DNA from: an uncultured Verrucomicrobiae bacterium
Lineage (GTDB): Bacteria > Verrucomicrobiota > Verrucomicrobiia > Limisphaerales > Palsa-1400
Length of the DNA: 64,000 nt
Direction: 5' to 3'
Assembly: GCA_963707025.1 (NCBI GenBank)
Contig: CAVPOM010000008.1
Location: 32,001-96,000, forward strand
The notes beneath the pieces were generated by a model. The model was not told where the DNA came from. It was given only the letters and a program-made list of their open reading frames with translations, and searched no databases. Below, piece after piece: positions 33,426 to 50,841 of this stretch. The position numbers and the translations under genes were made by a program. Each line of letters begins with the position of its first letter. Position 1 is the first letter of the stretch.

Positions 33426-34820
33426 TCAATCTTCTGGGCGTTCGCCGCTGGGCGCCATCTTCACCAGCTTGGGATCGAATTGGCCGAGGGTCGTGACCAG
33501 GTCTTTTTGTGCGGCCATCACTTCGCGGATGTTTTTATAGGCCATCGGGACTTCATCCAGTCCGGCGCTAATGAGTGTCACGCCGCGTTCGCGGAGAAGA
33601 CGGTTCACTTCTTTCCAGTTGAATTTCTGGTTGGCGGCTTTGCGGCTCATGGCGCGGCCGGCGCCGTGCGAGGCCGAGTTGAGCGAATCGGGATTTCCCT
33701 TTCCGCTCACGACATATCCCGGCGACGCCATGGAACCGGGAATGATGCCCAGGACTCCCGCCCCCGCCGGCGTGGCGCCTTTGCGATGCACGACGACCTC
33801 CCGTTCCACTCCCCCGATAACGTGCTTTTCTTTCCAGGCGAAATTGTGATGGTTTTCCAAATCGAGCAAAACCTGCGCACCGAGGTTTTCCGCGATGTGC
33901 TGGTGGATGCAGGCGTGGTTGGCTGCGGCATATCGCCCCATCAGTTCCATCGCGTTCCAGTATTCTAGTCCGGGCTGCGAATCGAGCGACAGCCAGGCCA
34001 GCCGTTTCAATTCGCTGGGCAAGTCCGCAAATTGAGCGAACGCGATTTTGCTGTAGTAATCGCAAACCGCCGCGCCCGTCCCGCGACTGCCGCTGTGCGA
34101 CAGCAGCGCGACATAAGTTCCCGGCTCAAGGCTGCTGATTTTTGAGTGCGCTGTGAACAGGCCAAACTCGACAAAATGATTTCCGCTCCCGCTGGTGCCG
34201 AGTTGCGCCCACGCACGGTCCTTGTTCTGCTTCACCACCGGGCTGATCGTCCAATCCGCATCCATCACCTCGTGGGTGCGGCGATTCCGAAACGTCGAGC
34301 CGACGCCGAAGCGCGTTTCCGCTTCGATGGCGCGGGTCAGACGGTCCTGACTGTTCTCCAAATCGCGCGCCGGAATATCCAACACCGTCATTTTCATGCG
34401 GCAGGCAATGTCCACGCCGACGGCGTAAGGAATCACGGCGTTTTCCGTTGCCAGCACGCCGCCGATGGGCAGGCCGTAGCCGACGTGTGCGTCCGGCATG
34501 AGCGCCCCCGCCACGGAAACCGGCAGCAAACAAGCTTTCTCCATTTGCATCACCGCCTCGTGTTCCAGCCCTTCGCCCCACTGCCGGTATTTCACTGGAT
34601 CGGCGCGCAGTGGAGGCGGCGCAGCAAGCAACACCTTCGCGAATTCACCGCGCAGCGGGTCGCCCGCATACGCCGACGGATTGGCCACAATGGCAGCGAC
34701 TTCTTCGCGCAACCGCGACTTGTCGCCGCCACCGAGGATGAACTTGGCAACAAAATCCGTCGCCCGCCGCGTCGCCTCGCCCAGCGGCACACCCAGTCTG
34801 ATAAAATCCTTGGTGTTCAT
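33426..34820 (-). CDS. rtcB: RNA 2',3'-cyclic-phosphate/5'-OH ligase RtcB
   Basis: MPDAH.GYGLPIGG, VGVDIAC, GSGNHFVE, HSGSRG, HRKGAT and SHGAGR motifs. Confidence 0.96.
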   Translation of the reverse strand: MNTKDFIRLGVPLGEATRRATDFVAKFILGGGDKSRLREEVAAIVANPSAYAGDPLRGEFAKVLLAAPPPLRADPVKYRQWGEGLEHEAVMQMEKACLLPVSVAGALMPDAHVGYGLPIGGVLATENAVIPYAVGVDIACRMKMTVLDIPARDLENSQDRLTRAIEAETRFGVGSTFRNRRTHEVMDADWTISPVVKQNKDRAWAQLGTSGSGNHFVEFGLFTAHSKISSLEPGTYVALLSHSGSRGTGAAVCDYYSKIAFAQFADLPSELKRLAWLSLDSQPGLEYWNAMELMGRYAAANHACIHQHIAENLGAQVLLDLENHHNFAWKEKHVIGGVEREVVVHRKGATPAGAGVLGIIPGSMASPGYVVSGKGNPDSLNSASHGAGRAMSRKAANQKFNWKEVNRLLRERGVTLISAGLDEVPMAYKNIREVMAAQKDLVTTLGQFDPKLVKMAPSGERPED

Positions 34821-34950
34821 GTATGAAATCGCCTTTAAACTTAATCCTCCCTGTCCCGATGACGGTAATGGGCGCTGCCCATTCTCCTCCGCGTGAGAAA
34901 GAAGACTGTGACGTGGATTTGGATTGTGTTCGATTCTCTTATGTCCTAAA

Positions 34951-37900
34951 TTACTGCATCGCCTCTGCCAATTGTGTAAAGGCAACTACCTCCTTTGGTG
35001 ATGTCGCCGAACCGCTAAAAAACTGCATTGGAACGAGGTCATCCGTGACAAGCAACCCTTTGAATCGGATCGCCGTCGCCGGAATCCCAGTCAGGGCACA
35101 CACAGCTGACGGGTTCGCCTTTAGCCAGTTTAAACGGCGCAGATGTTTTCCGAGGGAGTCTTCTCGCTCTCCTCGGTAATCGTCCAAACGCTCAACAACG
35201 TCTCGAACGCTTATCGCTGTACGCAGGCGCTTACATTCAATGACAAATATATCTGGAGAGCCGCCTTTCCAGGCCAGCACATCAACGTCTCCAAAGTCCC
35301 CGGCAGATGCAGGGCACCCAAGGGCACTCATAAAAACCTCTCGCCGCGCAACGAATCCTAGTTTTTCCGCCCGATCCGCCACGTCACGCGTGAACTGGTT
35401 ACCTTGTCGGTTCGCCTGATCTCCACAAAATGCCCGCATCGTTCTTGTTCGAAAATGTTCCGTCGGGAATGCGGATTCAGCGATATTTCCTATGATGTAA
35501 GCCGCACTTGTTTTAACCAGTGGTGGATAAACGAGCCAGATCTTGCTGGGTGCGCCCCTCAACATGACGAATGGCCGCATCAGCAGAGACAGCTGACGGC
35601 GGAATCGCCACGGCTGAACGTCTTTTTCCTGGTATCCATGTAAATCTTTGTTCCAGCCGCGGCGGGGCGGCAGTGAGAATCGTCCGATGAAAAACTCAAT
35701 GGTCTTTGCATCCAAATTGCACTCGTTCATTAGTAATGAGCGGAAACTAGCATCGTCCAACTCAAGAATTAGCTTCTGCGTTTTCAAGGCTACATGGCCG
35801 AAGCGGTTGGGAATTGCAACGAACTGATCAATTGTCACCCCAAACTCATCATGGAATGGCTGCTCCATCCGGCGTATGGTTTCGAGACTACGAGCACTCT
35901 CTTTGGGTTGGTAACTTGAAAACCAGCGGTCGTAATTTTGTGCGGAAGAATGAAAGCCCTTTTCAAAAACCGCGCGAACGTAAGGCGACATGACTGTCGC
36001 GTAGAATTCCTTGTCAAAATCCAATTCGCCATTTTGGAAGGAATGGATCTCTGGCTCCATAAATCCCTCCGAGATTGCGTCTCGATGGTTGGCTGCGCTA
36101 AAAAGGTTCTCGAACTGGGCAAGCATCTCCAAACGTGCTGCTTTCGGCATTGCGTGGCCGCCTTCTGCTGGGCATGCGTACATTGCTGTTTCAACCAACA
36201 GGCGATTGGCCAGCGTTGCCGCGTCTCTGTCGCTTCGGCGCCCTTCTGCAAACTTCAAGATTTCTTGTGGGTCGTGCAGAGCAAGCAATGCGCGCGCCGC
36301 CAGACACCAACGCTGTTCGTCCTTTTCCAATTCGGCCAAGGCGGAGAAACACGCGATCACAACCTCTCGCCGATTGAACTGCGCAAGCCCCTTTTCGATT
36401 CTCTGCCAAAGGTTGTCCACGACTCGGTGCAAGTAATCCATGCATTGCTCTCTCCCTAAGCTTTTTCCACTTGCTGAGGGCGGTCCGAGTTCATCCGCCA
36501 GCTCGATCAGGCTATGAGAGCATTCCTCCTCTGGGATGAAGTCAGGCGAAGGCCGATATGTTGCAGCCAGAATTTGAGCCCAATTCTCCGTTTTTACAAA
36601 ATGAAAGAACCGAGCCTCATCATTTGGGAAGATTGAGGTTAATAATCTGACACGGTCGTCAGCCGATATTGTGCTGCCTGCCAATTCGGCTATTGCAGCG
36701 ATTGTGCAATCAATCAACATGCGCTCTGCTTGGTTCCTCGGAGTGTGGAACTTCTCGCTAAATTCTGCAGGCAGCGTAACGACGATCGTCCGGTCGCGCC
36801 GATTGACGGATGAGGTTGGCTGAGAGGAGACTTGAGAATTGGGAATATTTTGATCAGCCCATTTGGAAAGTTCCGGCACGTCTAATTCAATCAAGATTGA
36901 TCCGGCTTGAAGGTTTCGGAACTCTTTTTCGACCACGACACCAGCTCGGTTCATCCAATTGAGCAAACAGTCCCAGAGTTGGAACAAAACGCTTTGCTCG
37001 TCGGGTATCGTGGTGTTCGCTTTAGAAACAATCCACCAATTCCGATTTGTTGTTTCAATTACCCCCATTAGCATTTTCTGCTTAGATCCTTCAAGCGCAA
37101 TATACACTGGAGCCTCCTTGTCTCTGGCATAATAAGCCTTTGCTCCACGGCGTTCTACTCGAACCCAGTGCGTGAGATCATGCGCGAGAATGGAGTGGTC
37201 GTCGTAAGCGTGCAACACCTCCTTTCGAATATCCGCTATGAAGCCAGTTCCAACGGTTAGCATCTTGTGTGGCTGAGACAGCTCCATTTGCCGTGGCACG
37301 AAACGCCAATTATTGGAACGCCAATACGCGTAGAGATTCAGCGGACCGTTAAGGTTCATAATATGGACGCCACGTTTTTCAGCCCATTCTTGATGACGCC
37401 ACATTCTCCAGAGACGGAGGGCAGACATATCATCGCACCGGGCGAGCGTGCGCCAGTCTGGCGGAGAAGCAAAAATCAAGCCCCAGTCCGGTATTTTCTT
37501 CATAGAGAGCGCCACGCCACGTCCCACACCGCCACGCGTTATGAGTGTCATGCCTCCGTTGAACTGAGGCTGCGCTTTTAAAACCGCAGCGCAATCCAAT
37601 AAATGCCTTTCAAATGAATTTTGATGTTGTGCAGTTAACTCGTCGGTATCATGGGCATCGGTCAATTCTCCAGAAACATTGCCATCGAGTAAAACAACAT
37701 GGGCATATTTTCCTTGGTCAAAACTCAAGGTGGCTTGATAAATGGTCGGGAGTTCATTTGATGGTGAAGGAAGGGCAATGTCCATCGGTTCGAAGCCAAG
37801 GCCGTGTTCAAGCGTCCGCATCCACATTGCGAATTGGCTCGTATGTAGCAGCATTTCGAAACGGCGGAGGAAGTCCGTTTCATTCAGTTGTTCGACCAAA

Positions 37901-38727
37901 AAGCGTCGAACGCTCAAAGTTACCGCGTGTGGGGCAGCTAAGACTAAATTATCAGCGAACTGGACGATTGGATATCTCTCCAAGTCGCTATGGCCGGTGC
38001 TTTGTTCTAGCAAACGCTTCCGGTCCTCTTCGGTGAACAGAAACGGGGCAAGATCTCGGCAATTAATGCCCAATTGTTGCAGGTCAGCCGGCGAAAATGT
38101 GACTGCTCGTGAGCAAGCACTTAGGTCATGCCACGGCGGAATAGCGATGCGGCCACAGAATTGAGCGGAACCAAAAGTATATCGCGGCAGTTGGCGGCGC
38201 GATGCAACGGCGTCGATGAGCTTCAGAAATGAGCGAATGTGGCTGAGGCTTGGTTTCAGCGCTTCGGGTGCGTCTGCGCGCTCAAGCGGACGCAGAATTT
38301 GCTCCACCCAATAATCGCCCGACTCTTCGATTCCGCGAAATATTCTAAAATTCCCGAAACTGGTTGCGACGTTTCCGGTAAAAGCGTCTTCGACGGGGTC
38401 CTCCAACCTCGCTAGTTCAGAACCAACGAAGTGACGGCCCGCACATTTCACCAACATTTCACGGTCTGCCTTTCGCTTTCCTGCGCAAGCGTAACAGGCC
38501 AAGTGTGCGAGCGCGTCTAGGCGAAGCGTGTTTTCGTGGTAGTGCGGCAGTGTAAGAAATCCGCCAATAAGCGGTGCCACCGAAGCGTAATCGTAGCGCT
38601 TCAGCTCATTCACTAGTCCGCGATGTTGTTGAGCCAGGTCGGCGATCTGTTTCATACGATTCAACGGCATTCTACGAATTACGGCTTGGGAGAGCGAGCT
38701 TTGACGCTCGCCCTCCCGCAGTTTCAT
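34951..38727 (-). CDS. large hypothetical protein with C-terminal PD-(D/E)xK nuclease-like domain
   Basis: GDVDVLAW...IECKRL near the C-terminus; ATG overlaps the HNH stop (start could also be 38670 or 38655); lower GC. Confidence 0.7.
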   Translation of the reverse strand: MKLREGERQSSLSQAVIRRMPLNRMKQIADLAQQHRGLVNELKRYDYASVAPLIGGFLTLPHYHENTLRLDALAHLACYACAGKRKADREMLVKCAGRHFVGSELARLEDPVEDAFTGNVATSFGNFRIFRGIEESGDYWVEQILRPLERADAPEALKPSLSHIRSFLKLIDAVASRRQLPRYTFGSAQFCGRIAIPPWHDLSACSRAVTFSPADLQQLGINCRDLAPFLFTEEDRKRLLEQSTGHSDLERYPIVQFADNLVLAAPHAVTLSVRRFLVEQLNETDFLRRFEMLLHTSQFAMWMRTLEHGLGFEPMDIALPSPSNELPTIYQATLSFDQGKYAHVVLLDGNVSGELTDAHDTDELTAQHQNSFERHLLDCAAVLKAQPQFNGGMTLITRGGVGRGVALSMKKIPDWGLIFASPPDWRTLARCDDMSALRLWRMWRHQEWAEKRGVHIMNLNGPLNLYAYWRSNNWRFVPRQMELSQPHKMLTVGTGFIADIRKEVLHAYDDHSILAHDLTHWVRVERRGAKAYYARDKEAPVYIALEGSKQKMLMGVIETTNRNWWIVSKANTTIPDEQSVLFQLWDCLLNWMNRAGVVVEKEFRNLQAGSILIELDVPELSKWADQNIPNSQVSSQPTSSVNRRDRTIVVTLPAEFSEKFHTPRNQAERMLIDCTIAAIAELAGSTISADDRVRLLTSIFPNDEARFFHFVKTENWAQILAATYRPSPDFIPEEECSHSLIELADELGPPSASGKSLGREQCMDYLHRVVDNLWQRIEKGLAQFNRREVVIACFSALAELEKDEQRWCLAARALLALHDPQEILKFAEGRRSDRDAATLANRLLVETAMYACPAEGGHAMPKAARLEMLAQFENLFSAANHRDAISEGFMEPEIHSFQNGELDFDKEFYATVMSPYVRAVFEKGFHSSAQNYDRWFSSYQPKESARSLETIRRMEQPFHDEFGVTIDQFVAIPNRFGHVALKTQKLILELDDASFRSLLMNECNLDAKTIEFFIGRFSLPPRRGWNKDLHGYQEKDVQPWRFRRQLSLLMRPFVMLRGAPSKIWLVYPPLVKTSAAYIIGNIAESAFPTEHFRTRTMRAFCGDQANRQGNQFTRDVADRAEKLGFVARREVFMSALGCPASAGDFGDVDVLAWKGGSPDIFVIECKRLRTAISVRDVVERLDDYRGEREDSLGKHLRRLNWLKANPSAVCALTGIPATAIRFKGLLVTDDLVPMQFFSGSATSPKEVVAFTQLAEAMQ

Positions 38728-39308
38728 TCCCGCACGAACAGCCTCCATTCTGGGATGCCGTGGGCGTTGCGAATGAGGGCCGTGGCCGGCAATTCCTTCG
38801 GCGCGCGCGGCACTGAGAGCAGCTTCAGGCCGGCTTCGTGCGGCAGGCGGTTGCCTTTGCGGGCGTTCACCTCCTTCCCGGCCCAAACCAGGTTGTCCCA
38901 GGCGTTCTTGCCACCGCGCGAGCGGGGTAGGACGTGATCCATGCTGCCTTCCTCGGGGCGCAGCACACGGCCGGTGTATTGGCAGCGGTTGCCGTCGCGC
39001 TCGCGAATGGCGCGGGCGCACAGCTTCGGGCGCTTCTTGGGCACCTTGGCGTAATTCACCGCCACGATCACCGTCGGCACGCGGATTGGACCGCGGACGG
39101 TTCGCACCGCATTGTCCTGCGGGCGCATGGGCAGCGTAATCCACTCGTCCCAGGAAACGGGACGAATGTGATTTTCCCCTTCGATTTCCAGGCCGGTCGC
39201 CACGTTCGTCGCCATCATGCAGAAGGCCTCCTGCGGCGTCCGGACGTTGACGGCCTGCCAGTTGCGGTTGAGCACCAGCACCATCGCTTTGTTCAGTATG
39301 TCGTTCAT
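38724..39308 (-). CDS. HNH endonuclease
   Basis: VLVLN..W, RD...CQYTG, DHVLPRSRGG..WDNLV and N..KGN motifs. Confidence 0.92.
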   Translation of the reverse strand: MNDILNKAMVLVLNRNWQAVNVRTPQEAFCMMATNVATGLEIEGENHIRPVSWDEWITLPMRPQDNAVRTVRGPIRVPTVIVAVNYAKVPKKRPKLCARAIRERDGNRCQYTGRVLRPEEGSMDHVLPRSRGGKNAWDNLVWAGKEVNARKGNRLPHEAGLKLLSVPRAPKELPATALIRNAHGIPEWRLFVRE

Positions 39309-39502
39309 AAAAATGTCTGCATACGGCCACCGTGCTTGTCGCGGCGGGGTGTTTGTTCTTTGTTGAGGCATCCCCGGCGGCGAGATCGAGACGCTTCCTG
39401 AGCATCATTCCGTGTCCAGCCCAGACGAGCGTGCTTCCGGCTGGCCTTCGGCACGTTTTTCGCGCATTTTGGGATTGAAGCGTTCGAATTCTGGAGAAAA
39501 TC

Positions 39503-40207
39503 ATGAGACCTTACGTGATCTGCCACATGTGTACGACGATCGACGGTAAAATCCTGGGCGATCGTTGGGGCAAACTTCCCGGCTGCAAAGACAGCGCCAC
39601 GCTCTTCGAAACCACGGCGGCCAGCTTTGGCATCGGCGCCTGGCTTGTGGGCACGACTACGATGAAAGAATTTGCCGGGCGAAACGTGAAACTGCCCCCC
39701 GCCAGGAAACCGGTCGTTCATCGGGACCACATTGCCGACAAAAATGCCAGGCGACTGGCGATCGGTGTGGATGCGAAGGGCGTTTTGCGCTTCCAAGAGA
39801 ACGAAGTGGACGGCGATCATGTGGTCCTGCTTATCACCGATCGTGTCGGTGACGATTACCTGGCGCACCTCCAGGCCGCCGGCGTCTCCTATCTCTTCTG
39901 CGGCCAGAAGGAAGTGGACCTGCACGTTGCCCTTGGCAAGCTGGGCAGCAGTTTTCATCTACGCAAGCTGATGCTCCAGGGCGGTGGAAAGTTCAACGGC
40001 GCCATGCTCCACGCCGGGCTTGTCGATGAAATCAGCCACGTCACCGTGCCAGTCGCCGACGGCGGCGTTGGCATCTCGAGCTTTTTCGACATTCCCGGCA
40101 ACCCGCCGCCCAAATCCGCTGCCACTCTCCGCCTCCTGTCGTGGAAACGACTGCCAGGCAGCGTGACGTGGCTGCGCTACCGCGTCGTCGTTAAGCATAC
40201 GCGCTGA
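39503..40207 (+). CDS. RibD C-terminal/dihydrofolate reductase-like protein
   Basis: RPYVICHM...DGKI and GGG..NG..L.AGLVDEIS motifs. Confidence 0.85.
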   Translation: MRPYVICHMCTTIDGKILGDRWGKLPGCKDSATLFETTAASFGIGAWLVGTTTMKEFAGRNVKLPPARKPVVHRDHIADKNARRLAIGVDAKGVLRFQENEVDGDHVVLLITDRVGDDYLAHLQAAGVSYLFCGQKEVDLHVALGKLGSSFHLRKLMLQGGGKFNGAMLHAGLVDEISHVTVPVADGGVGISSFFDIPGNPPPKSAATLRLLSWKRLPGSVTWLRYRVVVKHTR

Positions 40208-40278: not shown

Positions 40279-40353
40279 TGGCTGCCTCGCCCGGTTTTGC
40301 TCCAGGTCCTCCGGTGTCAGAGACCGGCGCGCTCCTGATTACGCCACGAGGCA
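40279..40353 (-). tRNA. tRNA-Gln(CUG), atypical T-loop
   Basis: CCGGT-CTCTGAC-ACCGG arm; encoded CCA. Confidence 0.85.
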
Positions 40354-40388
40354 ATGGCCCGCCGAGCGGCAGCCCGGAGGGAGAAGAT

Positions 40389-40462
40389 TGGTCGCCCGGG
40401 GAGGTTCTGCCCCTCCGATTTCTGGGTGTAGGCCAGACGTGATGCTATTTCACCACCGGGCG
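40389..40462 (-). tRNA. tRNA-Val(UAC), C33
   Basis: TCTGG-CCTACAC-CCAGA; CCA. Confidence 0.8.
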
Positions 40463-40467
40463 GAAAT

Positions 40468-40542: not shown

Positions 40543-40548
40543 ACAAAA

Positions 40549-43522: not shown

Positions 43523-44269
43523 ATGACGATTCCGGCTGAATTGGTCCAACGTCTTGCCACTGCCAAAAGCGTGACCGTGCTCACAGGCGCTGGCGTATCC
43601 GCGGAAAGCGGCGTCCCCACCTTTCGCGATGCCCAAACCGGCCTGTGGGCCAAATACAGTCCCGAAGAACTGGCCACTCCGCGCGCCTTCCGACGCAATC
43701 CCCGCCTCGTTTGGGAGTGGTATGAGTGGCGGCGGAAGCTTGTCGCCGGCGCCAAACCAAACCCAGCGCACTTCGCCTTGGTGGAAATGGAGGGCCTCTT
43801 TCTGCGGTTCCATCTCATTACGCAAAACGTGGACGGTCTTCATCAACGCGCCGGAAGCCGGCACGTCATCGAGCTGCACGGCAATATCACGCGCACGAAA
43901 TGCTCCGACGAAAGCACGATTGTTTCGAGTTGGAAAGACACGGGTGACGTCCCGCCGAAATGTTCGGCCTGTGGCGGCCTGTTGCGCCCCGATGTGGTTT
44001 GGTTCGAAGAGCCGATGCCGGAAGAGGAGATGCAAGAGGCCATGACGGCGAGCACGCATTGCGACTTCTTCTTCTCCATTGGGACATCCACCGTTGTTTA
44101 TCCGGCGGCCGCCCTGCCATCGGAGGCATTGCGCAGCGGAGCGACCGTGGTGGAGATCAATCCGCAACCCACACCATTCACGCCGCAGGCGCATTTGGCT
44201 CTGGCTGGGGCGGCCGGGGTTGTGTTGCCCGAATTGGTGAGGGCTATCAGCGCCTCGCGCCGCTTTTGA
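43523..44269 (+). CDS. cobB: NAD-dependent protein deacylase (sirtuin)
   Basis: TGAGVSAESGVPTFR, TQNVDGLH, ELHG, RPDVVWF and GTS motifs. Confidence 0.93.
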   Translation: MTIPAELVQRLATAKSVTVLTGAGVSAESGVPTFRDAQTGLWAKYSPEELATPRAFRRNPRLVWEWYEWRRKLVAGAKPNPAHFALVEMEGLFLRFHLITQNVDGLHQRAGSRHVIELHGNITRTKCSDESTIVSSWKDTGDVPPKCSACGGLLRPDVVWFEEPMPEEEMQEAMTASTHCDFFFSIGTSTVVYPAAALPSEALRSGATVVEINPQPTPFTPQAHLALAGAAGVVLPELVRAISASRRF

Positions 44270-44272: not shown

Positions 44273-44347
44273 TGGAATCCCGCGTGGGGGGCGCACCCAC
44301 TTTTGCGGCTTTGCAGGCCGCCGCCTGAGCTGTTCGGCCAACGGGAC
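44273..44347 (-). tRNA. tRNA-Cys(GCA)
   Basis: GCGGC-CTGCAAA-GCCGC; U73-CCA. Confidence 0.85.
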
Positions 44348-44352: not shown

Positions 44353-45099
44353 TCAGATTTCGACGACCAATGAAGGATTAAACCCTTTGCAGCGCTCATC
44401 CGGGTAGCCCAGTTGATTTGTCAGGATACGGGTTGACCCCATCACGTAGTCCACGTTGTAATGCGTGTGTCCGTGGATCCAGAGAGGAACGCCACTCTGT
44501 TCGACCAACGAGTCCAAGTCGGAAGCAAACGCCGCTTTAAGTGGACTGTCCGCGTGATAGAGCGCTTCTGACCGGGCACTCGGTGCATGATGCGTCACAA
44601 CGATGGTGCGGGCGCGATCACATTTGGCCAGCGCGCGGCGCAGCCAGGCGACAGATTCCGCGTGCAATCTGGCGGTGTCACATGCGCGCAGCCTGCGATT
44701 TTCTGTGCTGAACTGAACGATGCCGTAGTCGCTCATGATGGCCTCAGCTACGCGCATCGATCCATCCAGATCGTCACCCAACTGAAAATCTGTCCATAAG
44801 GTGCATCCCAAGAACGTGTAGCCGTTGATTTCCACGGCGTCGTTCTCCAGCAGATGGATGTTGCTGCCATCTGTTTCTCGTTTCAGGGTTTCGGTCAGCT
44901 CGGGCAAGGAGTGGCGATAGAACTCGTGGTTTCCTAAAACGTAAATGACCGGCTTGGCGAAGAATTGATTTCTCGCCCAGATACGCCCTTCGCGGCCAAG
45001 ATGAACGTCACCCGCCAACACCACGACATCCGCGTCGGTCACGGGGATTTTGACTGCTCCGAATTCAAAGTGCAGATCGGCCAAAATGTGTAAACGCAT
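44353..45099 (-). CDS. calcineurin-like metallophosphoesterase
   Basis: DLH, AGD, GNHE, THH and HGHTH motifs. Confidence 0.92.
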   Translation of the reverse strand: MRLHILADLHFEFGAVKIPVTDADVVVLAGDVHLGREGRIWARNQFFAKPVIYVLGNHEFYRHSLPELTETLKRETDGSNIHLLENDAVEINGYTFLGCTLWTDFQLGDDLDGSMRVAEAIMSDYGIVQFSTENRRLRACDTARLHAESVAWLRRALAKCDRARTIVVTHHAPSARSEALYHADSPLKAAFASDLDSLVEQSGVPLWIHGHTHYNVDYVMGSTRILTNQLGYPDERCKGFNPSLVVEI

Positions 45100-45198: not shown

Positions 45199-46906
45199 CT
45201 ATTCGCGAACAAAGTCCGCAATGACGGCTGGCACCGTCGTGTCGAAGCCGACCACGTCCAGCATGCCCGCGGTCGTTTGGGTCGGCGAGGGTGAAGCCGT
45301 TGGAGGTCATGCCCACAACGACCGCCTTCGCGTCGCCGACGAACTCGTCGCGATACTGGCGCAGGGCCTGGGCCGGATGGATGTTGCCCGCCCACGTCTC
45401 GCTGTCCGTATAGGTGATAAACGCCGACACGTTCAGCTTGTTGCGGGCGGCCCACACCATCGGCAGGGCGCAATCCGTGCCACCCATTGGGATGGCTTCG
45501 ATGCGCTTGATGACGTCGGCCAATCTCATGCGCGGCGAGAGGTTCACACGGGTGATGCCCGGTTCGCCGCCGCCGTGCATGCCACCGTAACCACCGCCCG
45601 CCGGAGCCGAGAACGCGATGATCTCGCATTCCGGTTCGGTTGCGGCCGTGATCAGTGCCATCGCCGCGCTGGCTTCGCGGGCCGAGATGCACGAACCCGC
45701 GATCATGGAACCATCCATCGAGCCGCTTACGTCAAGCGCGAGCAGCACCGGCTTGTTGCACGGTTCCACGTTCTGGAACGTCGCGTAAAACGCTTCGTCC
45801 AGCGCGTCCACCACCGCCGACACCGGCGACCACGCAAGCGAACCCTTGTCGCCGTGACCCTGGGCGTAGACCTTCTGCGCCACAAGGACCGCCAGCGGGT
45901 GGATGCGCGCACGCTTGAGCGCCATCTCGTCCTGCAGCTTGCGGACGATCAATCGCTTGGAGTCGCTGAACGGAGCCAGCAGACCGAGGCTCGTCATCTT
46001 GCCGAGGTTGCGGATCATCGCCGTCATCGGCATACGTTCCAGCAAGGCCTCCCACACAACGACTTCATTGAGCCACTGCGTTGGGATGGCTTCGCGCGGC
46101 AGGTCGAACTCGTTGATGATCTTCACGATCTCGTCCGCGCTCAATGCGCGCTTGGCCCGCTCGAAGGCTTCGATGAGCTTCGGCAGTGCGCCGACCGGGC
46201 CATACTTCGCGACACGGTCTTCACCGCGCACTCTGCGCTTCACTTCGCGTTCACCCAACGAATCCGCATGGGAAGCGGAACCTCCGCACAGCAACCAGCG
46301 GAACACCGATTCGTGCTGGGCCGACGGAGCCTTTGGGTGAGCAAGGCGAAGAAGGTCGCCGTGCGACCAACCGTCGCGTTGCTGGTACTTGACCGCCTGG
46401 TGCGCAAGATCATCGGCATCGCGGTAAACATACCAGTCGCCAACGGCGTTGCGCAGGCCACGGCCCCAGCCGCGCATGGCATTGACGTATTCGGCGAAGT
46501 GGAACAAGTGCGTGCCAATGCGGCAGACCTTGTTCAGGCTCGCAAACGCGAGCGCCTTCGCCTGGGCATCACCATGCGTGACGGCCAGCGCGAGGGCGAA
46601 GATGGCCGGATCGTTCTTGGGCGCGCGTCCGGCATCGCTGATCTCAACGATGCGGTTGACGGCACGGACTCCGTCGGCCCTGATGCAGCGGAGAATCGCC
46701 TCGTGGTTCTGCTTCACGAGATCGCGTTCCGCGATGTAATACGTGCCTCCTTCGGCGCCGAGGACGAGGAAACGGTCGAGCCGCGTCCAGTCATCCACTT
46801 CCCACGAGAAGCCGCCGCCCGAATTGCGAACCTGGTTCGCGCCCGGGATCGGCTGCGACTGCGGGGTGATGCGGCGATTAAACTGACGTGCGTAATTGAT
46901 AGCCAT
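45199..46906 (-). CDS. rsr: Ro60/TROVE-domain RNA-binding protein (Rsr); apparent 1-nt frameshift near 45268
   Basis: RLDRFLVLG.EGGTYY, GWGRGLR.AV..WY, KYQQRDGWSH.DLLRL.H and vWA DVSGSM motifs; the shifted frame gives ...GMLDVVGFD...FVRE*. Confidence 0.95.
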
Positions 46907-46966
46907 GGTGGCCTCCTTCTTGTGAGCGTGCCGCCAACTTCCGGCACGGGTTTTCTATCGGTTAAA

Positions 46967-47032
46967 CTGCGGACAAGTTGGTGAACGTGGGATGGTCATT
47001 CGTAGTGATAACCCATGTTCTTCGGCCCGCAG
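46967..47032 (-). ncRNA. Y RNA 1 (minimal, no tRNA-like domain)
   Basis: CTGCGGGCCGAAGAACATGGGTTATC...CCCACGTTC...CTTGTCCGCAG; resembles the Ro60-binding stem of Y RNAs. Confidence 0.8.
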
Positions 47033-47047
47033 TCAATGGGCTTGCGA

Positions 47048-47295
47048 TTATTCGCGGAAAAAAGTGATTCCTCAGAGCGCCGTCATATCGTCCGGAGCGG
47101 AGGCAGCATTTCTTAAAAGCTGCGTCCGGAGCCGCATGGGCAGAGGTCGTTCCGCCCCAGCTTTTCGCTGAGTTCCTTATTCCCGTGAACGAGGCGCACG
47201 CCGCGTTTGACGTTCGTTTCGGACGGGAAGCCCTTGCGGCGTTTGCTGGTGATTTCGAAACTGGCGTCTTCATGATCATGTGTGTTGTTTGCCAT
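47048..47295 (-). CDS. SEC-C motif small protein (frameshifted)
   Basis: [28 protein letters not shown] upstream. Confidence 0.75.
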
Positions 47296-47357
47296 ACGGC
47301 CTCCTCGTTTGAGTATTGCGGTTGAAACATCGTGGCCCGCGCCACGATGAGATAGCG

Positions 47358-47465
47358 GATGGGCAAGGGACGACCCGGGAATTGCTCTATCCACTGAGCT
47401 ACTCCTCGTTGCCGAGGAGACTGGATTCGAACCAATGACCGATAACCCGATGTCTTCGGCCCATC
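47358..47465 (-). ncRNA. Y RNA 2 (YrlA-like, permuted tRNA domain)
   Basis: GATGGGCCGA/CTTGCCCATC stem; T-arm TTCGAAT, closed acceptor hairpin, then D-arm. Confidence 0.9.
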
Positions 47466-47473
47466 AAATTGAA

Positions 47474-47598
47474 AGCGGGCAAGAAAGCGACCGTGGAATT
47501 GCCCAGCGTGCTGCCTTTACACCACTGCGGAACGCTCCGCGGGACGGAATTGAACCGCCGCTGCCGGGTTATCGAGAACCCACAATTTACGGCCCGCT
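47474..47598 (-). ncRNA. Y RNA 3 (YrlA-like)
   Basis: AGCGGGCCG/CTTGCCCGCT stem; T-acceptor-D order. Confidence 0.85.
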
Positions 47599-47607
47599 GA
47601 AAGGGAC

Positions 47608-47736
47608 CGACGGATAAGAAACGAACTGGGAATTTACGTGCTCTACCCCTGAGCTACCCCGGCATTGGAGCCGGAGGCGGGACTCGAACCCGCAACCTCG
47701 TCGTTATCAGCGATAACCCAATCCTGCGACCCGTCG
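47608..47736 (-). ncRNA. Y RNA 4 (YrlA-like)
   Basis: CGACGGGTCG/CTTATCCGTCG stem; GGGTTATC; T-acceptor(TCCA loop)-D order. Confidence 0.88.
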
Positions 47737-47745
47737 AAAAAGCCG

Positions 47746-47859
47746 CGACGGACAAAGAGCGATATGGGAAACAATCGGTCGCCCGATTGCGCGGGGTTCG
47801 AACCCGCTCATCCCGCAGTGCGGAACTTTTCCAGATAACCCATGATCAACGACCCGTCG
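47746..47859 (-). ncRNA. Y RNA 5 (T-arm plus hairpins, no clear D-arm)
   Basis: CGACGGGTCG/TTTGTCCGTCG stem; GGGTTATC; GCGGGTTCGAACCCCGC. Confidence 0.8.
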
Positions 47860-47866
47860 GAAAAAC

Positions 47867-48004
47867 TCGATGGACAAGTGCTGCCGCAGATAGGGATTCG
47901 CAAGCGGGAATCGAACCCGCGTCACCAAACTCACGTTCGGCGGCTCTCTCACGGTGAGCAACCACCCCTGTTGGAGCGATAACCTGCAACATTCGGCCCA
48001 TCGA
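47867..48004 (-). ncRNA. Y RNA 6 (non-permuted tRNA-like domain)
   Basis: TCGATGGGCCGA/CTTGTCCATCGA stem; GGTTATC; D-anticodon-T order. Confidence 0.82.
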
Positions 48005-48007
48005 AAT

Positions 48008-48083
48008 TGGTCAGGAAGCCGGGATTTGCACCCGGACCGTCGCGTTCACAACGCGGAATGCTGCTGTTACACCACAATCCTGA
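48008..48083 (-). tRNA. tRNA-His(GUG), atypical acceptor
   Basis: CGCG-TTGTGAA-CGCG; A73, no G-1:C73. Confidence 0.75.
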
Positions 48084-48090
48084 TTTGAAA

Positions 48091-48166
48091 TGGAGCCCCT
48101 GGTCGGACTCGCACCGACGAATACGAGTTTACGAAACTCGCCCTGTGGCTGCTGAGGCACAGGGGC
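48091..48166 (-). tRNA. tRNA-Thr(CGU)
   Basis: CGAGT-TTCGTAA-ACTCG; CCA. Confidence 0.85.
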
Positions 48167-48170
48167 ACAA

Positions 48171-48248
48171 TGGTGTCCACGGCAGGAATCGCGCCTGCGA
48201 CCTCCACCTTCGCGCGGTGGCGCTCTGATCTAACTGAGCTACGCGGAC
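48171..48248 (-). tRNA. tRNA-Arg(GCG), G32 C33
   Basis: CCACC-GCGCGAA-GGTGG; CCA. Confidence 0.75.
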
Positions 48249-48251
48249 AAT

Positions 48252-48329
48252 TGGCATCCGTGATCGGACTTTCACCGATTAGGCCCGGCTTGAAAGACCG
48301 GCTGCTCGATCTGCTTTGCATTCACGGAC
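48252..48329 (-). tRNA. tRNA-Glu(UUC)
   Basis: CCGGT-CTTTCAA-GCCGG; G73-CCA. Confidence 0.85.
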
Positions 48330-48333
48330 AGGA

Positions 48334-48409
48334 TGGCCGCTGGAGTCGGAATTGCGCCGACACTTCCTGTGCTTCAAGCAGGTGTGCAGACTGACTACAC
48401 CATCCAGCG
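48334..48409 (-). tRNA. tRNA-Phe(GAA), atypical
   Basis: CCTG(C)-TTGAAGC-(A)CAGG; C1-G72, G73. Confidence 0.7.
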
Positions 48410-48417
48410 GGCAAAGC

Positions 48418-48636
48418 GGTGCGCGGCAGCTTGGGTCAGCTACCTTGAAGGGCTGTCTAAGAAGCTTGAGCCTTGCGGGCTGCGGCTTGCATTTTGAACG
48501 AGCTGACCGATGTGGTTTGACAACTCGGCATCAACATCAGCAGGTAATTGGATTTTCGGTCCAATAAGGAACGTTTAGAGCGCTCCAGATTTTGACAGCG
48601 TGCTCCATCGGCGGCATTCCGCCACCACCGCGCACC
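48418..48636 (-). ncRNA. structured RNA downstream of the DIP1984-like gene
   Basis: GGTGCGCGG/CCGCGCACC closing stem; GGTCAGCT/AGCTGACC stem enclosing a CAA-repeat loop; several hairpins. Confidence 0.6.
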
Positions 48637-48658
48637 TGAATCAGAACCGCTGGCGGAA

Positions 48659-49105
48659 TCAAGGATTCACGCTGCGGGTGAAGTTGAACTCGTCCAGCGC
48701 ATCTTGCAGCGACTGAATTTCGGCGTTCAACTCGGTGACAAGTTTGTCCACGTCCACCTTGCCGAGCTGGGCGACATATTCGACCTCGTAGCTTGCATCG
48801 GCAAAACCGCGTCCTTCGTGGAAAACGCCGGCCTTGGTGTCCAGCGCGTTCAACGTGGTGGCCAGACCCTTGAGTTCCGCCAGCCGGAAAATCCGGTCGT
48901 AGATTTCCACGTTGGCGGCCGCGACGGCGGCCTTGACCTTGACCAATTCGTCGAGCTTAACGCGCAGGCGCGTCAAGACTTCGCGATTGTCGTAGTCGAA
49001 CTTCTGTTTAGTGGAACGGGAGTTTTGTTTGGTGAGCAGATCCTTCAACTGGGCGACTTCGCCGGCCAGTTGGTTTTTCATTTTAAGTGCTTTGGCGATT
49101 TTCAT
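48659..49105 (-). CDS. DIP1984-like coiled-coil protein
   Basis: MK.AKALK.K..L...; K.AV..AN; LQD.LD.FN pattern. Confidence 0.65.
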   Translation of the reverse strand: MKIAKALKMKNQLAGEVAQLKDLLTKQNSRSTKQKFDYDNREVLTRLRVKLDELVKVKAAVAAANVEIYDRIFRLAELKGLATTLNALDTKAGVFHEGRGFADASYEVEYVAQLGKVDVDKLVTELNAEIQSLQDALDEFNFTRSVNP

Positions 49106-49146: not shown

Positions 49147-49220
49147 TGGTCGTCCCGGCAGGTAACGCTCCTGCTTCTTCCGGTTATCGACCGGAGGCTC
49201 TGCTTTTGAGCTACGAGACG
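49147..49220 (-). tRNA. tRNA-Ile(GAU), C33
   Basis: TCCGG-TCGATAA-CCGGA; CCA. Confidence 0.85.
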
Positions 49221-49394
49221 GTGGTTAATTGAGGCTTCACGCCAAAACGATGCGCGGGGCGGAACACAAGATTGAGCTTCGTGGTCGGGCGGATTCGAAT
49301 GCCACGTTTTGGCTTGTAGCTTCGACGAAAAGGGCATTGACTTTGATGCCGCATTATGGGTTTCACGGGATTTCCTTTCGTTGAGGGTTAAAAC

Positions 49395-49481
49395 TGGCGG
49401 ATGGTGTAGGGATCGCACCCACGCAGCCCGCAGGCTCACTCGGTTTTCAGGACCGGGGCATTACTTCTCTGCCAACCATCC
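49395..49481 (-). tRNA. tRNA-Ser(UGA), C33
   Basis: CGGT-CCTGAAA-ACCG; variable arm AGCC/GGCT; G73. Confidence 0.85.
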
Positions 49482-49489
49482 GTACAAAT

Positions 49490-49563
49490 TGGCTGCCAGA
49501 CTTGGACTCGCACCAAGACAAGCGGCTTAACAGGCCACCGTGCTACTTTGACACCACCTGGCA
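49490..49563 (-). tRNA. tRNA-Asn(GUU)
   Basis: GTGGC-CTGTTAA-GCCGC; G73-CCA. Confidence 0.88.
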
Positions 49564-49564
49564 A

Positions 49565-49640
49565 TGGCGCTGCCGGCAGGATTCTCACCTGCATCTATCC
49601 GCTTAGAAGACGGATGCCTGATTTGTTCGGCCACGGCAGC
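49565..49640 (-). tRNA. tRNA-Arg(UCU)
   Basis: TCCGT-CTTCTAA-GCGGA; CCA. Confidence 0.88.
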
Positions 49641-49647
49641 GTTGAAA

Positions 49648-49723
49648 TGGTCGGAATGGCAGGATTTTCACCTGCGGCCTCCCGGTCCCAAGCCGGGTGC
49701 TCTAAAGACTGAGCTACATTCCG
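49648..49723 (-). tRNA. tRNA-Pro(UGG)
   Basis: CCCGG-CTTGGGA-CCGGG; C1-G72, A73. Confidence 0.9.
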
Positions 49724-49730
49724 TGAAAAA

Positions 49731-49806
49731 TGGCGGACCCGAAGGGAGTTGCACCCTCAACCCTCCCGCAGACAACGGGGCGCTCTGCTGATTGAGCTAC
49801 GGATCC
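49731..49806 (-). tRNA. tRNA-Asp(GUC)
   Basis: CCCG-TTGTCTG-CGGG; G73-CCA. Confidence 0.85.
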
Positions 49807-49810
49807 GAAA

Positions 49811-49898
49811 TGGTGGGAAGTGCTGGTAATGCTCCAGTCGTCGCTTCCGACATGTTTTGAGACGTCCGGGTTACGGCCGGATTGCCGGATCACTTCCC
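49811..49898 (-). tRNA. tRNA-Tyr(GUA), D-armless, long variable region
   Basis: TCCGG-CCGTAAC-CCGGA; GGGAAGTG/CACTTCCC acceptor; A73-CCA. Confidence 0.7.
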
Positions 49899-49904
49899 TG
49901 AGAT

Positions 49905-49977
49905 TGGTAGCGGGGGTGGGAGTTGCGCCCACGGAGGCTGAGCTTATGGGGCTCGCCTGAATCTCATTCTCCCCGCA
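49905..49977 (-). tRNA. initiator-like tRNA-Met(CAU), reduced D-arm
   Basis: GAGC-CCCATAA-GCTC; 1:72 mismatch. Confidence 0.75.
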
Positions 49978-49983
49978 GTGAAA

Positions 49984-50058
49984 TGGTGGAGTCGGTGGGT
50001 AGCGCGCCCACATCAACCTGCTTGCAGGGCAGGTGCATTGCTTGTCTGCCACGACCCC
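49984..50058 (-). tRNA. tRNA-Ala(UGC), C33
   Basis: CCTGC-CCTGCAA-GCAGG; G3:U70 present. Confidence 0.9.
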
Positions 50059-50064
50059 GGAAAA

Positions 50065-50136
50065 TGGCAGGCTGCCTCCGTGCTGCCCGGAGTAAGCTGA
50101 GTTTTGGAGACTCGGCCGCGTGCTGACGCTCAGCCT
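50065..50136 (-). tRNA. tRNA-Trp(CCA), reduced D-arm
   Basis: GAGT-CTCCAAA-ACTC; G73-CCA. Confidence 0.78.
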
Positions 50137-50145
50137 GTGCATGAA

Positions 50146-50220
50146 TGGTGCGGCTGCCGGGAGTTGCGCCCGGACTTCCTCCATGGCGAGGAGATATTCT
50201 GCTGCTTAAATCACAGCCGC
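50146..50220 (-). tRNA. tRNA-Gly(GCC), C33
   Basis: TCTCC-TCGCCAT-GGAGG; CCA. Confidence 0.85.
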
Positions 50221-50221
50221 G

Positions 50222-50258
50222 AAAGTAAAAGGGCCGGGAGCGTTCAGGCTCCCGGCCC
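50222..50258 (-). terminator. terminator-like hairpin just before the first tRNA
   Basis: GGGCCGGGAGC-CTGAAC-GCTCCCGGCCC followed by TTTTACTTT. Confidence 0.7.
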
Positions 50259-50520
50259 ATGCCATTTCAACAAAGAACAAACACCTCTTGGTGATCTATG
50301 CGATCCCAACCCGCGGTTTCACGGCGGCTGTTTCGGTGTTTAGGGGCACACCTCCTGCGAAGCCCTTGATATGTAAATCTAAAATTCGTCTCGCTCGTCT
50401 TGATGACGCTGTCTTCCGGTCATGGGCAGACCCCACCGGTGAGGCTTCTCTGCTCGTCCTCGCCAAATTCAAGTTGTCGCCAGAAGACATCACCTGGATG
50501 TCGCTTTGTTCTTGTTCACA
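50259..50520 (-). ncRNA. structured leader RNA containing boxA-like TGTTCTTTG
   Basis: AAGAACAAA/TTTGTTCTT closing helix; GACATC/GATGTC, GCAGA/TCTGC and GGTGT/ACACC stems. Confidence 0.5.
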
Positions 50521-50567
50521 GATTGTCCGTCTTTCGTCGTCACTCGTTCACATTCATGGTGTTCAGG

Positions 50568-50606
50568 AAAAATAAAAAACCCTGCTTGCATTTCGGCAAG
50601 CAGGGT
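50568..50606 (-). terminator. intrinsic terminator (attenuator)
   Basis: ACCCTGCTTGC-CGAAAT-GCAAGCAGGGT followed by TTTTTATTTTT. Confidence 0.9.
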
Positions 50607-50628
50607 GGAAAAAATTCTGTTTCGTTCG

Positions 50629-50799
50629 TTACCTGCTTGCCATGAGTCTATCCAACTTGACCTGTTGTTCCGACGCGGTCCTGGATAGGCTAAGGCTAAA
50701 CACACTACCCGGGTTATACCGGCTATGACGTGTCCCAATGGTCATTGGGGCCGTCGTAATCGGCCAACTCGTGGCTGATATGTTTAAGCAAGTTTTCAT
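50629..50799 (-). CDS. putative 56-aa leader peptide MKTCLNISATSWPITTAPMTIGTRHSRYNPGSVFSLSLSRTASEQQVKLDRLMASR
   Basis: starts just after the promoter; last codons overlap antiterminator GGCAAGCAGG; contains all 20 amino acids. Confidence 0.7.
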   Translation of the reverse strand: MKTCLNISATSWPITTAPMTIGTRHSRYNPGSVFSLSLSRTASEQQVKLDRLMASR

Positions 50800-50812
50800 T
50801 GAACTTATGCGA

Positions 50813-50841
50813 AAGCTATCATGGCGTGTTCATGTCGTCAA
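50813..50841 (-). promoter_or_regulatory. sigma70-type promoter of the tRNA array
   Basis: TTGACG-N17-TAGCTT with extended TG; AT-rich UP-like tract at 50842-50880. Confidence 0.75.

Follow-up and report, generated by a model that had tools for sequence, protein, structure and literature searches.

The window analysed here is a 64,000-nucleotide stretch (positions 32,001 to 96,000) of contig CAVPOM010000008.1, contig C8 in our numbering, from the genome of an uncultured Verrucomicrobiae bacterium (Limisphaerales, Palsa-1400; assembly GCA_963707025.1; 6.96 Mb in 18 contigs, ~60% G+C, 88% estimated completeness). Its minus strand carries, from about position 50850 down to 33426, an island in which a long array of tRNA genes is interleaved with Y RNA-like genes and the Ro60 gene rsr and which ends in an HNH endonuclease gene and the RNA ligase gene rtcB. 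Long-array operons of this kind are widespread in Verrucomicrobiota of the Limisphaerales/Pedosphaera group, and the conserved core order, with genes as predicted from sequence, is a ~600-nt leader, ~25–30 supernumerary tRNAs, tandem Y RNAs with rsr, HNH and rtcB. In this copy the order runs from the leader through 11 tRNA genes, a DIP1984-like open reading frame (ORF), a 250-nt non-coding stretch and five tRNA genes to five Y RNA-like genes, a SEC-C ORF, a sixth Y RNA-like gene, rsr and a metallophosphoesterase gene, and then through 12 tRNA genes in four groups to HNH, a Upx-like gene and rtcB. The core features and the SEC-C ORF among them are:

50221..50850, minus strand: leader, ~600 nt, upstream of the first tRNA
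49147..50220, minus strand: tRNA block 1, 11 genes (Gly-GCC, Trp-CCA, Ala-TGC, Met-CAT, Tyr-GTA, Asp-GTC, Pro-TGG, Arg-TCT, Asn-GTT, Ser-TGA, Ile-GAT)
48008..48409, minus strand: tRNA block 2, 5 genes (Phe-GAA, Glu-TTC, Arg-GCG, Thr-CGT, His-GTG)
47345..48005, minus strand: five tandem Y RNA-like genes, each with a long closing stem that encloses a tRNA-like part
47113..47295, minus strand: SEC-C motif ORF, 60 aa (Pfam SEC-C E 5.4e-6, profile positions 1–13 of 19)
46962..47040, minus strand: sixth Y RNA-like gene, of a plain stem-bulge type without tRNA-like part
45200..46906, minus strand: rsr (Ro60: TROVE ring and vWA; Pfam TROVE E 1e-47, vWA_Ro60 E 2e-49)
44273..44347, minus strand: tRNA-Cys-GCA (ARAGORN, Rfam and custom model)
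43118..43466, minus strand: tRNA-Gly-TCC, then tRNA-Lys-CTT (custom model)
41774..42209, minus strand: tRNA block, 5 genes (Arg-TCG, Leu-CAG, Leu-TAA without CCA, Leu-CAA, Ser-GCT)
40279..40625, minus strand: tRNA block, 4 genes (Lys-TTT, Gln-TTG, Val-TAC, Gln-CTG)
38724..39371, minus strand: HNH endonuclease (Pfam HNH_4 E 8e-9; 83% identical to the HNH of a second array in the genome)
33426..34829, minus strand: rtcB RNA ligase (Pfam RtcB E 5e-85)

The tRNA array

Twenty-eight tRNA-like genes lie within 50220–40279 (9.9 kb, or 2.8 per kb), all on the minus strand, and default tRNA finders miss over half of them, a warning for annotation: ARAGORN with default settings detects 11, and the Rfam tRNA model gives 13 in a whole-window scan and 18 at or above the gathering score in a focused scan. 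We built a covariance model from the 18 clear members and scanned 38500–51500 with filters off; the 18 training sequences match by construction, and ten further minus-strand genes at E ≤ 0.11 bring the total to 28, with one extra match within a Y RNA and one antisense. Five or six of the 28 are low-scoring, the weakest two being Trp-CCA (13.9 bits) and Tyr-GTA (11.8 bits), near chance by score alone; the weak genes nonetheless have counterparts of 80–100% identity in the same position of other arrays, those of Trp-CCA and Tyr-GTA being 80–98% identical. In the model alignment the anticodons account for all 20 amino acids, and CCA is encoded in 27 of the 28, Leu-TAA ending in CCG here and likewise in relatives. 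The custom model thus confirms the count, orientation, amino acid coverage and encoded CCA proposed in an initial annotation of this DNA. Encoded CCA is not special to the array, being present also in 34 of the 35 dispersed tRNAs of the genome. Compensatory changes occur at 19 of the 20 predicted cloverleaf pairs among the 18 aligned members, and the array tRNA-Ala keeps G3:U70.

The initial annotation saw in the array a replacement set of tRNAs. Under ordinary wobble rules, however, its anticodons would not read all codons (the only Thr anticodon, for example, is CGT), so that it could supplement the normal set and could not replace it. Dispersed canonical tRNAs for all 20 amino acids are present elsewhere in the genome, and the array is therefore extra.

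Two more arrays, on contigs C2 and C4, bring the total for the genome to three. The second array, on C2, shares with the island the leader (89% identity), many tRNAs, an opposite-strand SIR2 gene and HNH, and is without Ro60, Y RNAs, Upx and RtcB. Within block 1 a spacer of ~170 nt precedes Ile-GAT; this Ser–Ile spacer (49225–49390, minus strand) is 82% conserved with the second array and may encode a short arginine-rich peptide. Two array tRNAs are unusual in the anticodon arm. First, tRNA-Gly-TCC (43377–43466, minus strand) has, just 5′ of the anticodon, a 16-nt insertion that forms a small hairpin of its own; it is common to loci L031, L095 and L041, with compensatory changes, and missing from the paralogue and from L003. 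Possible readings of the insertion are a mini-intron, an expansion and an inactivation, and it is of interest since the island carries RtcB. Second, tRNA-Arg-TCG has an extra A in its anticodon loop, giving an 8-nt loop seen in no relative.

Conservation and spread

A scan of species-representative genomes gave 80 Ro60-related loci, 62 with Ro60 at least 64% identical and 18 more distant. At least three co-oriented tRNAs of the G55 type described below are present in 55 of the 62 closer loci. HNH occurs at 37 of them, RtcB at 31, the two together at 23, and the leader at 31, these counts being lower bounds as many contigs stop within the locus. The 18 more distant loci (Chloroflexi and others) include arrays of ordinary tRNAs at four, HNH at three and RtcB at three. 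The closest loci are from Verrucomicrobiota of the Limisphaerales/Pedosphaera group of peat and soil. The co-conservation that the initial annotation had set as a test of its reading is found for a core of leader, tRNAs, Y RNAs, Ro60, HNH and RtcB. It does not extend to the phosphoesterase (4 of the 80 loci), DIP1984 (2, plus L005), dtd (1) and arfB (0), which had been offered as further members; Upx, the kinase and the dehydrogenase occur at none of the 80, RibD_C at one and SIR2 at two.

We also searched 60 relatives, five of them same-genus genomes, for Ro60 and the leader. Ro60 is present in 12 of the 60 and in none of the five same-genus genomes, yet is up to 93% identical in other genera, and array tRNAs stand beside it at 9 of 11 loci around the relatives' Ro60 genes. 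This patchy distribution is consistent with horizontal transfer. Loci L003, L004 and L012 also have HNH followed by an rtcB 82–90% identical, in compact versions lying all on one strand, and L005, L007 and L009 carry a distant RtcB (27–28% identity) inside or beside the array. In most same-genus genomes synteny is too broken up for an empty site to be recognised, only G002 and G001 being informative; at the same site in G002 (dtd, arfB, rtcB) stands a decayed array of which only tRNA-Cys and SIR2 are left.

Near-identical islands (Ro60 81–96%) occur at nine loci (L024, L026, L033, L035, L040, L044, L045, L048, L054) binned as Pseudomonadales, Proteobacteria, Acidoferrum, Dongiaceae, Saccharimonadales, Terracidiphilus, Terriglobales, Limnocylindria and Akkermansia. 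Either these contigs are hard to bin and the odd taxonomy is binning error, or transfer has been very wide.

Sequences of the island also turn up in RNA libraries. Six metatranscriptome runs hold 25–30% of the sampled words of 44300–50900, and four runs, from four studies, yield contigs of at least 90% identity on the leader, on the zones of tRNA and Y RNA genes and on rsr, the phosphoesterase, HNH and rtcB. Among the contigs listed, depth is greatest over 48252–48692 and the leader, the deepest one (1844) covering the 250-nt stretch and the next two tRNAs. Contigs bridging 44347–45138 without the phosphoesterase and 42214–43115 without the dehydrogenase indicate that island versions lacking one or the other exist. 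The four runs gave no contig on 34851–38552 (Upx), which carries no information on its expression. Strand and ends are invisible in such contigs, which may be taken as a weak hint that the island is expressed.

A G55 class of tRNA

U55 in the T-loop is near-universal in tRNAs. In this genome the T-loop TTCRA is found in 34 of 35 dispersed tRNAs and in none of the 47 array-type tRNAs, and the array tRNAs lack the canonical elongator signature of T54-U55-C56-R57-A58 with G18-G19. Using a scanner of our own that requires only four stems and CCA, we took a census of the window and 93 other loci: among 760 unique type-I sequences from these 94 loci, position 55 is G in 718, T in 41 and another base in one. 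Type-I CCA tRNAs on the Ro60 strand of related loci number 720 with G55 and 10 with T55, and no G55-type tRNAs were found there on the opposite strand. The D-loop, whose numbering is approximate as loop lengths vary, has 'GG' in 55 of the 718 G55 sequences versus 38 of the 41 with T55, and putative position 18 is A in 403 of the 718. Within the G55 class, 348 of the 596 sequences with C56 carry G as putative nucleotide 19; of the 59 with A56, none carries G there and 32 carry T. The 19:56 pair appears to be kept through covariation, and the G55 elbow looks like a rebuilt yet coherent structure rather than a product of decay.

Relatives of the class occur outside the arrays of this lineage. The sole dispersed tRNA of this genome without TTCRA, a tRNA-Glu-CTC on contig C7 (240632–240706), has the array-type T-loop with G55, and the Glu-CTC of a Nostoc plasmid array (L178) shares this kind of loop. 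A 120-kb virus-like contig (L105) carries a Ro60 (49% identical), HNH, endolysin-like and endonuclease VII-like genes and 13 G55 tRNAs, so the class may also travel in phages. Open full texts, which leave out most subscription journals, yielded among the papers listed no work on tRNA arrays that treats the T-loop, U55 or the elbow.

Y RNA-like genes and Ro60

The six Y RNA-like modules, five at 48005–47345 and one at 47040–46962, all lie within 1.1 kb upstream of rsr. Y RNA families of Rfam match four of them at E < 1e-4 (YrlA twice, the Deinococcus Y RNA and nematode sbRNA), one is weak at E 0.45 and one has no Rfam match; the only match above gathering is that of the sixth module to RF01656 (nematode sbRNA, a Y RNA relative; 42.8 bits, gathering score 38). 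All six are predicted to fold with a long 5′/3′ closing stem, a candidate for Ro binding. Compared with shuffled sequences, three of the six reach z ≤ −2.7 (the sixth gene −3.5), and the other three are indistinguishable by energy. The motif GNCGAAN0-1G described for YrlA (PMC4201824) lies near the 5′ end of three of the six. The inner tRNA-like parts have a canonical TTCRA T-loop and a D-loop with GG.

The SEC-C ORF, which has relatives in 22 of the 80 loci, is broken by a stop that falls at a T-run within the motif, after profile position 13 of 19. The rsr gene scores 464 bits against the NCBIfam Rsr model, under the equivalog cut-off of 900, and a 1-base frameshift near 45266 replaces its last ~22 residues; relatives align only to residue 547–548, and L019 shows the intact C-terminal end. 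Contigs of two RNA-library runs have one base fewer at 45266, which restores the frame.

The leader

Besides the 31 of 62 loci noted above, the leader is present in 31 of the 60 relatives, and upstream of arrays in seven aligned loci it is 71–89% identical. It contains two terminator hairpins, the first at 50606–50579 and the second at 50258–50231, each with an upstream segment able to pair with its 5′ arm. These are the two strongest terminator-like sites of the 18-kb stretch; such sites are not enriched overall (22 versus a shuffle mean of 23), and only the two leader hairpins stand out. In an alignment of 35 leader 3′ domains one helix never varies, another is either CCGC/GCGG or CCAC/GTGG, a third occurs in at least six Watson–Crick variants (read by eye) and the terminator has compensatory changes. 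RNAalifold on this 35-sequence alignment missed helices P2 and P3, owing to a one-column shift between groups, and the covariation of these two was read by eye. With its two strong hairpins and alternative pairings, which we read as two terminator/antiterminator switches, the leader would fit conditional expression.

A consensus promoter scan found no minus-strand promoter; a promoter-like site at ~50843–50815 was picked by eye, and its −10 hexamer matches at only 3 of 6 positions. The leader has no family match in Rfam (best E 1.7). Two known kinds of control were considered and rejected: a T-box-like leader, there being no T-box match in Rfam, and a leader-peptide mechanism, as the short ORFs lack conservation and the indels do not come in multiples of three.

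In one complete genome (G009) a shortened leader with terminator lies ~780 nt upstream of rtcB with no array between, and a 90-nt leader piece (approximately window 50367–50275) occurs six to seven times (L179–L184). Five of six stand-alone copies of this sub-motif in G009 have no interpretable downstream gene.

The downstream end: HNH, Upx and rtcB

The HNH gene was recognised through its paralogue in the second array; the ORF at 39305–39958 was rejected for this role, having no HNH match and overlapping the opposite-strand RibD_C gene. Homologues of this HNH stand next to tRNA arrays on a Nostoc plasmid and in an RtcB-carrying jumbo phage; around the homologue on an Acaryochloris plasmid ARAGORN found no tRNA within 10 kb.

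34951..38670, minus strand: Upx-like nuclease, ~1240 aa, between HNH and rtcB

The initial annotation counted this gene, as a large nuclease-like protein, among the members of the unit. It is indeed homologous to a nuclease: it matches NCBIfam NF042954 with 549 bits over profile positions 10–1224 of 1240 (equivalog cut-off 1900) and PADLOC Upx with 501 bits over 28–1249 of 1271, and a C-terminal PD-(D/E)xK-like motif is visible in the translation. We regard it as a full-length Upx homologue far below equivalog level, with predicted nuclease activity. A start giving a 1517-aa ORF was rejected, the first ~280 residues being low-complexity read-through over the HNH gene in another frame. Upx has been described as a single-protein anti-phage system, a DNA exonuclease that recognises phage terminase (PMC13099982, PMC13601566). 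Membership in the unit is not borne out, as Upx is described as DNA-directed and its placement in an RNA-repair island is not conserved (0 of 80 loci).

The slot between HNH and rtcB is variable, holding Upx here, DUF3800 in G002, a NERD-like gene in G025 and an unknown protein in G030, and in many relatives HNH and rtcB are directly adjacent. Beside the related island of G030 (L003, positions 42–2352) Fic/DOC and Macro domain genes lie just beyond dtd. The range of Fic/DOC, Macro, DUF3800 and NERD-like genes suggests that the downstream end of the island collects conflict-type genes.

The likely start of rtcB is near 34829, relatives aligning from residue 53, and the gene is the sole RtcB family match in the genome. 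We found no RtcR (PF06956) match in the 88%-complete genome or among the neighbours scanned, and no RtcA family match in the genome; control genomes gave matches in the RtcR, RtcA and RtcB searches (E. coli for RtcR).

Accessory and flanking genes

The remaining features are:

48659..49105, minus strand: DIP1984-like ORF, 148 aa (NCBIfam NF038048 23 bits, cut-off 70)
48410..48660, minus strand: conserved non-coding stretch, ~250 nt, with a 13-bp invariant closing helix and inner hairpins
44353..45099, minus strand: calcineurin-like metallophosphoesterase (Pfam Metallophos E 2e-14; PADLOC candidate PDC-S10 E 1e-12)
43523..44269, plus strand: SIR2/CobB-type deacylase, common to the second array of the genome
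42282..43110, plus strand: short-chain dehydrogenase (SDR) in two frames, frameshifted; insertion
40838..41602, plus strand: Kinase-PolyVal domain protein (PF18762 E 1.5e-12); insertion
39503..40207, plus strand: RibD_C-like reductase (Pfam E 5.7e-15); insertion
33003..33416, plus strand: ArfB-like RF-1 domain gene; flank, outside the island
32416..32868, minus strand: dtd; flank, outside the island

The six Y RNAs of the initial annotation are present as Y RNA-like modules, and profile searches agree with it on the presence of rsr, phosphoesterase, SEC-C ORF, HNH and rtcB and, weakly, of the DIP1984-like gene. The last has no Pfam match and only three chance-level matches in a sequence search of the Protein Data Bank (PDB), and the same kind of search gave no match at E ≤ 0.01 for the metallophosphoesterase. 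The 250-nt stretch, without a match in Rfam, is found only alongside DIP1984 (L005, L064) and is a candidate structured RNA travelling with that gene. Kinase-PolyVal is a family that we take to be typical of mobile elements. The flanking dtd and arfB are the same neighbours in a same-genus genome.

Single-base problems affect four features, rsr, the SEC-C ORF, the dehydrogenase and tRNA-Arg-TCG, at least three of them at one-base runs, and may be assembly errors or very recent mutations. Elsewhere in the window a 1457-bp sequence (4527–5983) is repeated with 99.8% identity on contig C4 (L002, 1343–2798), and is probably an insertion sequence.

Comparison with known systems

The nearest described relatives of the island are the long tRNA arrays of a study of Anabaena PCC 7120, which reports them from seven phyla, Verrucomicrobia included, as horizontally spread (Santamaria-Gomez et al., 2021; PMC8421152). 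There the array is induced by translational stress, 23 of 26 tRNAs are aminoacylated, a conserved HNH gene lies beside long arrays, and rtcB is nearby and co-regulated (PMC8421152). Ro60, TROVE, Y RNA, G18 and the elbow are absent from the main text of that study. Both systems combine dozens of co-oriented supernumerary tRNAs with HNH and rtcB. They differ in that HNH is downstream of the array here and upstream in Anabaena, that control here would lie in an apparently transcribed leader with two terminators and there in repressor-bound DNA repeats, and that Ro60 and Y RNAs are embedded here and are not part of the Anabaena description. The array of the window is of the G55 type, whereas that of the Nostoc plasmid is mostly canonical and the Anabaena arrays are not shown to be G55.

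Salmonella Typhimurium reportedly has an rsr–Y RNA–rtcB(A) RNA-repair operon with RtcR (Chen, 2013; Hughes, 2020). The island resembles it in having Ro60 with same-strand candidate Y RNAs, including tRNA-like modules, plus RtcB. The Salmonella operon has RtcR, RtcA and two Y RNAs, whereas in the island's genome RtcR and RtcA were not found and the island has six Y RNA-like genes; rtcB lies ~10 kb downstream of rsr with 12 tRNA genes, HNH and Upx between, and the Ro60/Y RNA unit is nested in a tRNA array behind a leader different from that of Salmonella.

For jumbo phages, RtcB is described as a supplement to the phages' own tRNAs, joined in some of them by a ROT/TROVE protein (Iyer et al., 2021; PMC7824862). 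Like the island, Tunturiibacter phage Tunturi_5 has in one stretch an array of tRNAs (more than 30 in the phage), a homologue of the HNH and an RtcB; the phage tRNAs are canonical TTCRA, whereas the island is G55 and chromosomal with no phage genes nearby, and the nearest viral Ro60 is at most 54% identical to that of the window. With 28 genes in 9.9 kb the island also falls under the definition of a tRNA array unit, which asks for 20 or more tRNA genes at a density of 2 per kb or higher (Tran et al., 2016; PMC4758250); such units are described from Mycobacterium (Morgado and Vicente, 2018; PMC5966550). In contrast to them, the island interleaves protein and Y RNA genes, and its tRNA class differs. 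In open full texts, most subscription journals not included, we found no description of a tRNA array with Ro60 and none of this arrangement of an array with RtcB, and tRNA, TROVE, RtcB and HNH together were found only in Iyer et al. (2021).

Interpretation

The best-supported account is that the long array of this lineage, an accessory and transferable operon, has taken in a Ro60/Y RNA module and ends in HNH–rtcB, with a switch-like leader in front of the whole. Upx, SIR2, the dehydrogenase, kinase, RibD_C, phosphoesterase and DIP1984 appear as later cargo, and arfB and dtd as insertion-site neighbours. We put a probability of roughly 0.6 on the island being one copy of a horizontally spreading accessory 'long array' tRNA operon with an inducible backup-and-repair role, a reading that would add to the anatomy, co-conservation and sequence class observed here the elements of induction, decoding and repair, by analogy with Anabaena and Salmonella and from gene content. 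The leader would hold the unit off until a translation- or RNA-damage-linked signal permits read-through, and the long transcript would be cut into tRNAs and Y RNAs. The array tRNAs would then top up or replace damaged housekeeping tRNAs, Ro60–Y RNA particles would deal with misfolded or broken RNAs, RtcB would reseal cleaved tRNAs, and HNH would serve the spread or maintenance of the element.

Several observations weigh against a backup-and-repair operon. The incomplete codon coverage of the anticodon set is one, and another is that a tRNA without U55 breaks a near-universal rule, which leaves its fitness for the ribosome in doubt. The leader is commoner than Ro60 (31 versus 12 of the 60 relatives), which makes Ro60 an optional rather than an obligatory module, and the decayed copy in G002 implies that the island can be lost without obvious cost. 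Four opposite-strand genes (SIR2, SDR, Kinase-PolyVal, RibD_C) stand between the tRNA groups and make a single 17-kb transcript unlikely in this copy; the genes that the initial annotation placed in same-strand interleaving within one fused unit are indeed all on the minus strand, and their core is co-conserved, but the unit is interrupted. The frameshifts, the 8-nt anticodon loop and the 16-nt tRNA insertion may reflect decay or assembly errors. Lastly, the RNA-library contigs may hold DNA or come from related strains (90% identity).

Three other explanations each fit the conservation pattern less well than the backup-and-repair operon. The array RNAs might be non-decoding, that is tRNA-shaped decoys, sponges or sensors whose G55/A18 pool soaks up nucleases or feeds Ro60 and RtcB. 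In its favour are the loss of U at position 55 in 718 of 760 unique sequences, the many genes missed by standard detectors and an anticodon set incomplete for the code, and a sponge role is raised by the Anabaena authors themselves (PMC8421152). We think it unlikely, since the anticodons cover exactly 20 amino acids with sensible isoacceptors, the cloverleaf stems and the 19:56 tertiary pair covary, G3:U70 is kept in Ala, CCA is encoded in 27 of 28, and 23 of 26 Anabaena array tRNAs (from arrays not shown to be G55) are described as charged in vivo (PMC8421152).

Profile searches of the island and its surroundings reveal neither phage structural genes nor an integrase gene, Ro60 of viral contigs is at most 54% identical, and the unit, its 600-nt leader included, is conserved over several families of the order with many tRNAs 95–100% identical. 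These points, together with the island's holding the genome's only RtcB and the absence of the rsr frameshift from environmental contigs, make it quite improbable that the island is what is left, in decay, of the tRNA/RNA-repair module of a large phage, without host role and persisting through HNH and drift, even though large phages are described as carrying tRNA arrays with HNH, RtcB and sometimes Ro60 (PMC7824862), the 120-kb virus-like contig has Ro60, HNH and 13 G55 tRNAs, and this copy bears frameshifts and insertions and that of G002 is decayed. That the whole island is anti-phage defence, with Upx and the variable genes as effectors and with tRNAs, Ro60 and RtcB guarding the cell against its own or phage-triggered RNA damage, is very unlikely: a Upx homologue is present, differing defence-like genes (DUF3800, NERD-like, unknown) fill the HNH–rtcB slot in relatives, the phosphoesterase matches a PADLOC candidate, and Macro and Fic genes lie beside one relative's island, but Upx is found at 0 of 80 loci and is described as acting on DNA, no slot gene is conserved, and HNH and rtcB are directly adjacent in many relatives, so that the defence genes look like lodgers and not like the island's reason.

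The backup-and-repair operon may be taken one speculative step further, to a version that we hold to be rather unlikely as a whole. The G55/A18 tRNAs would be an orthogonal reserve that fits synthetases and ribosomes and evades an elbow-reading enzyme, for example a toxin aimed at tRNA, a nuclease of phage or defence origin or a decay pathway dependent on modification; the Y RNAs, with their canonical elbow, would together with Ro60 act as bait or sensor for that enzyme, RtcB would mend what was cut, and a leader RNA of a new class, its two switches arranged in tandem, would read the state of translation or of the tRNA pool and release the kit. If this were true, the leader motif before a stand-alone rtcB would define a small RNA-controlled regulon.

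The leader, without a known family, is a possible new sensor of damage to translation or to tRNAs. The bacterial tRNA genes that depart coordinately from the U55 rule, over 700 in number, are natural material on what reads the tRNA elbow. The island also joins two separate lines of research, on inducible spare-tRNA operons and on Ro60/Y RNA/RtcB repair operons, in one conserved and transferable unit, which dozens of Verrucomicrobiota from soil and peat carry.

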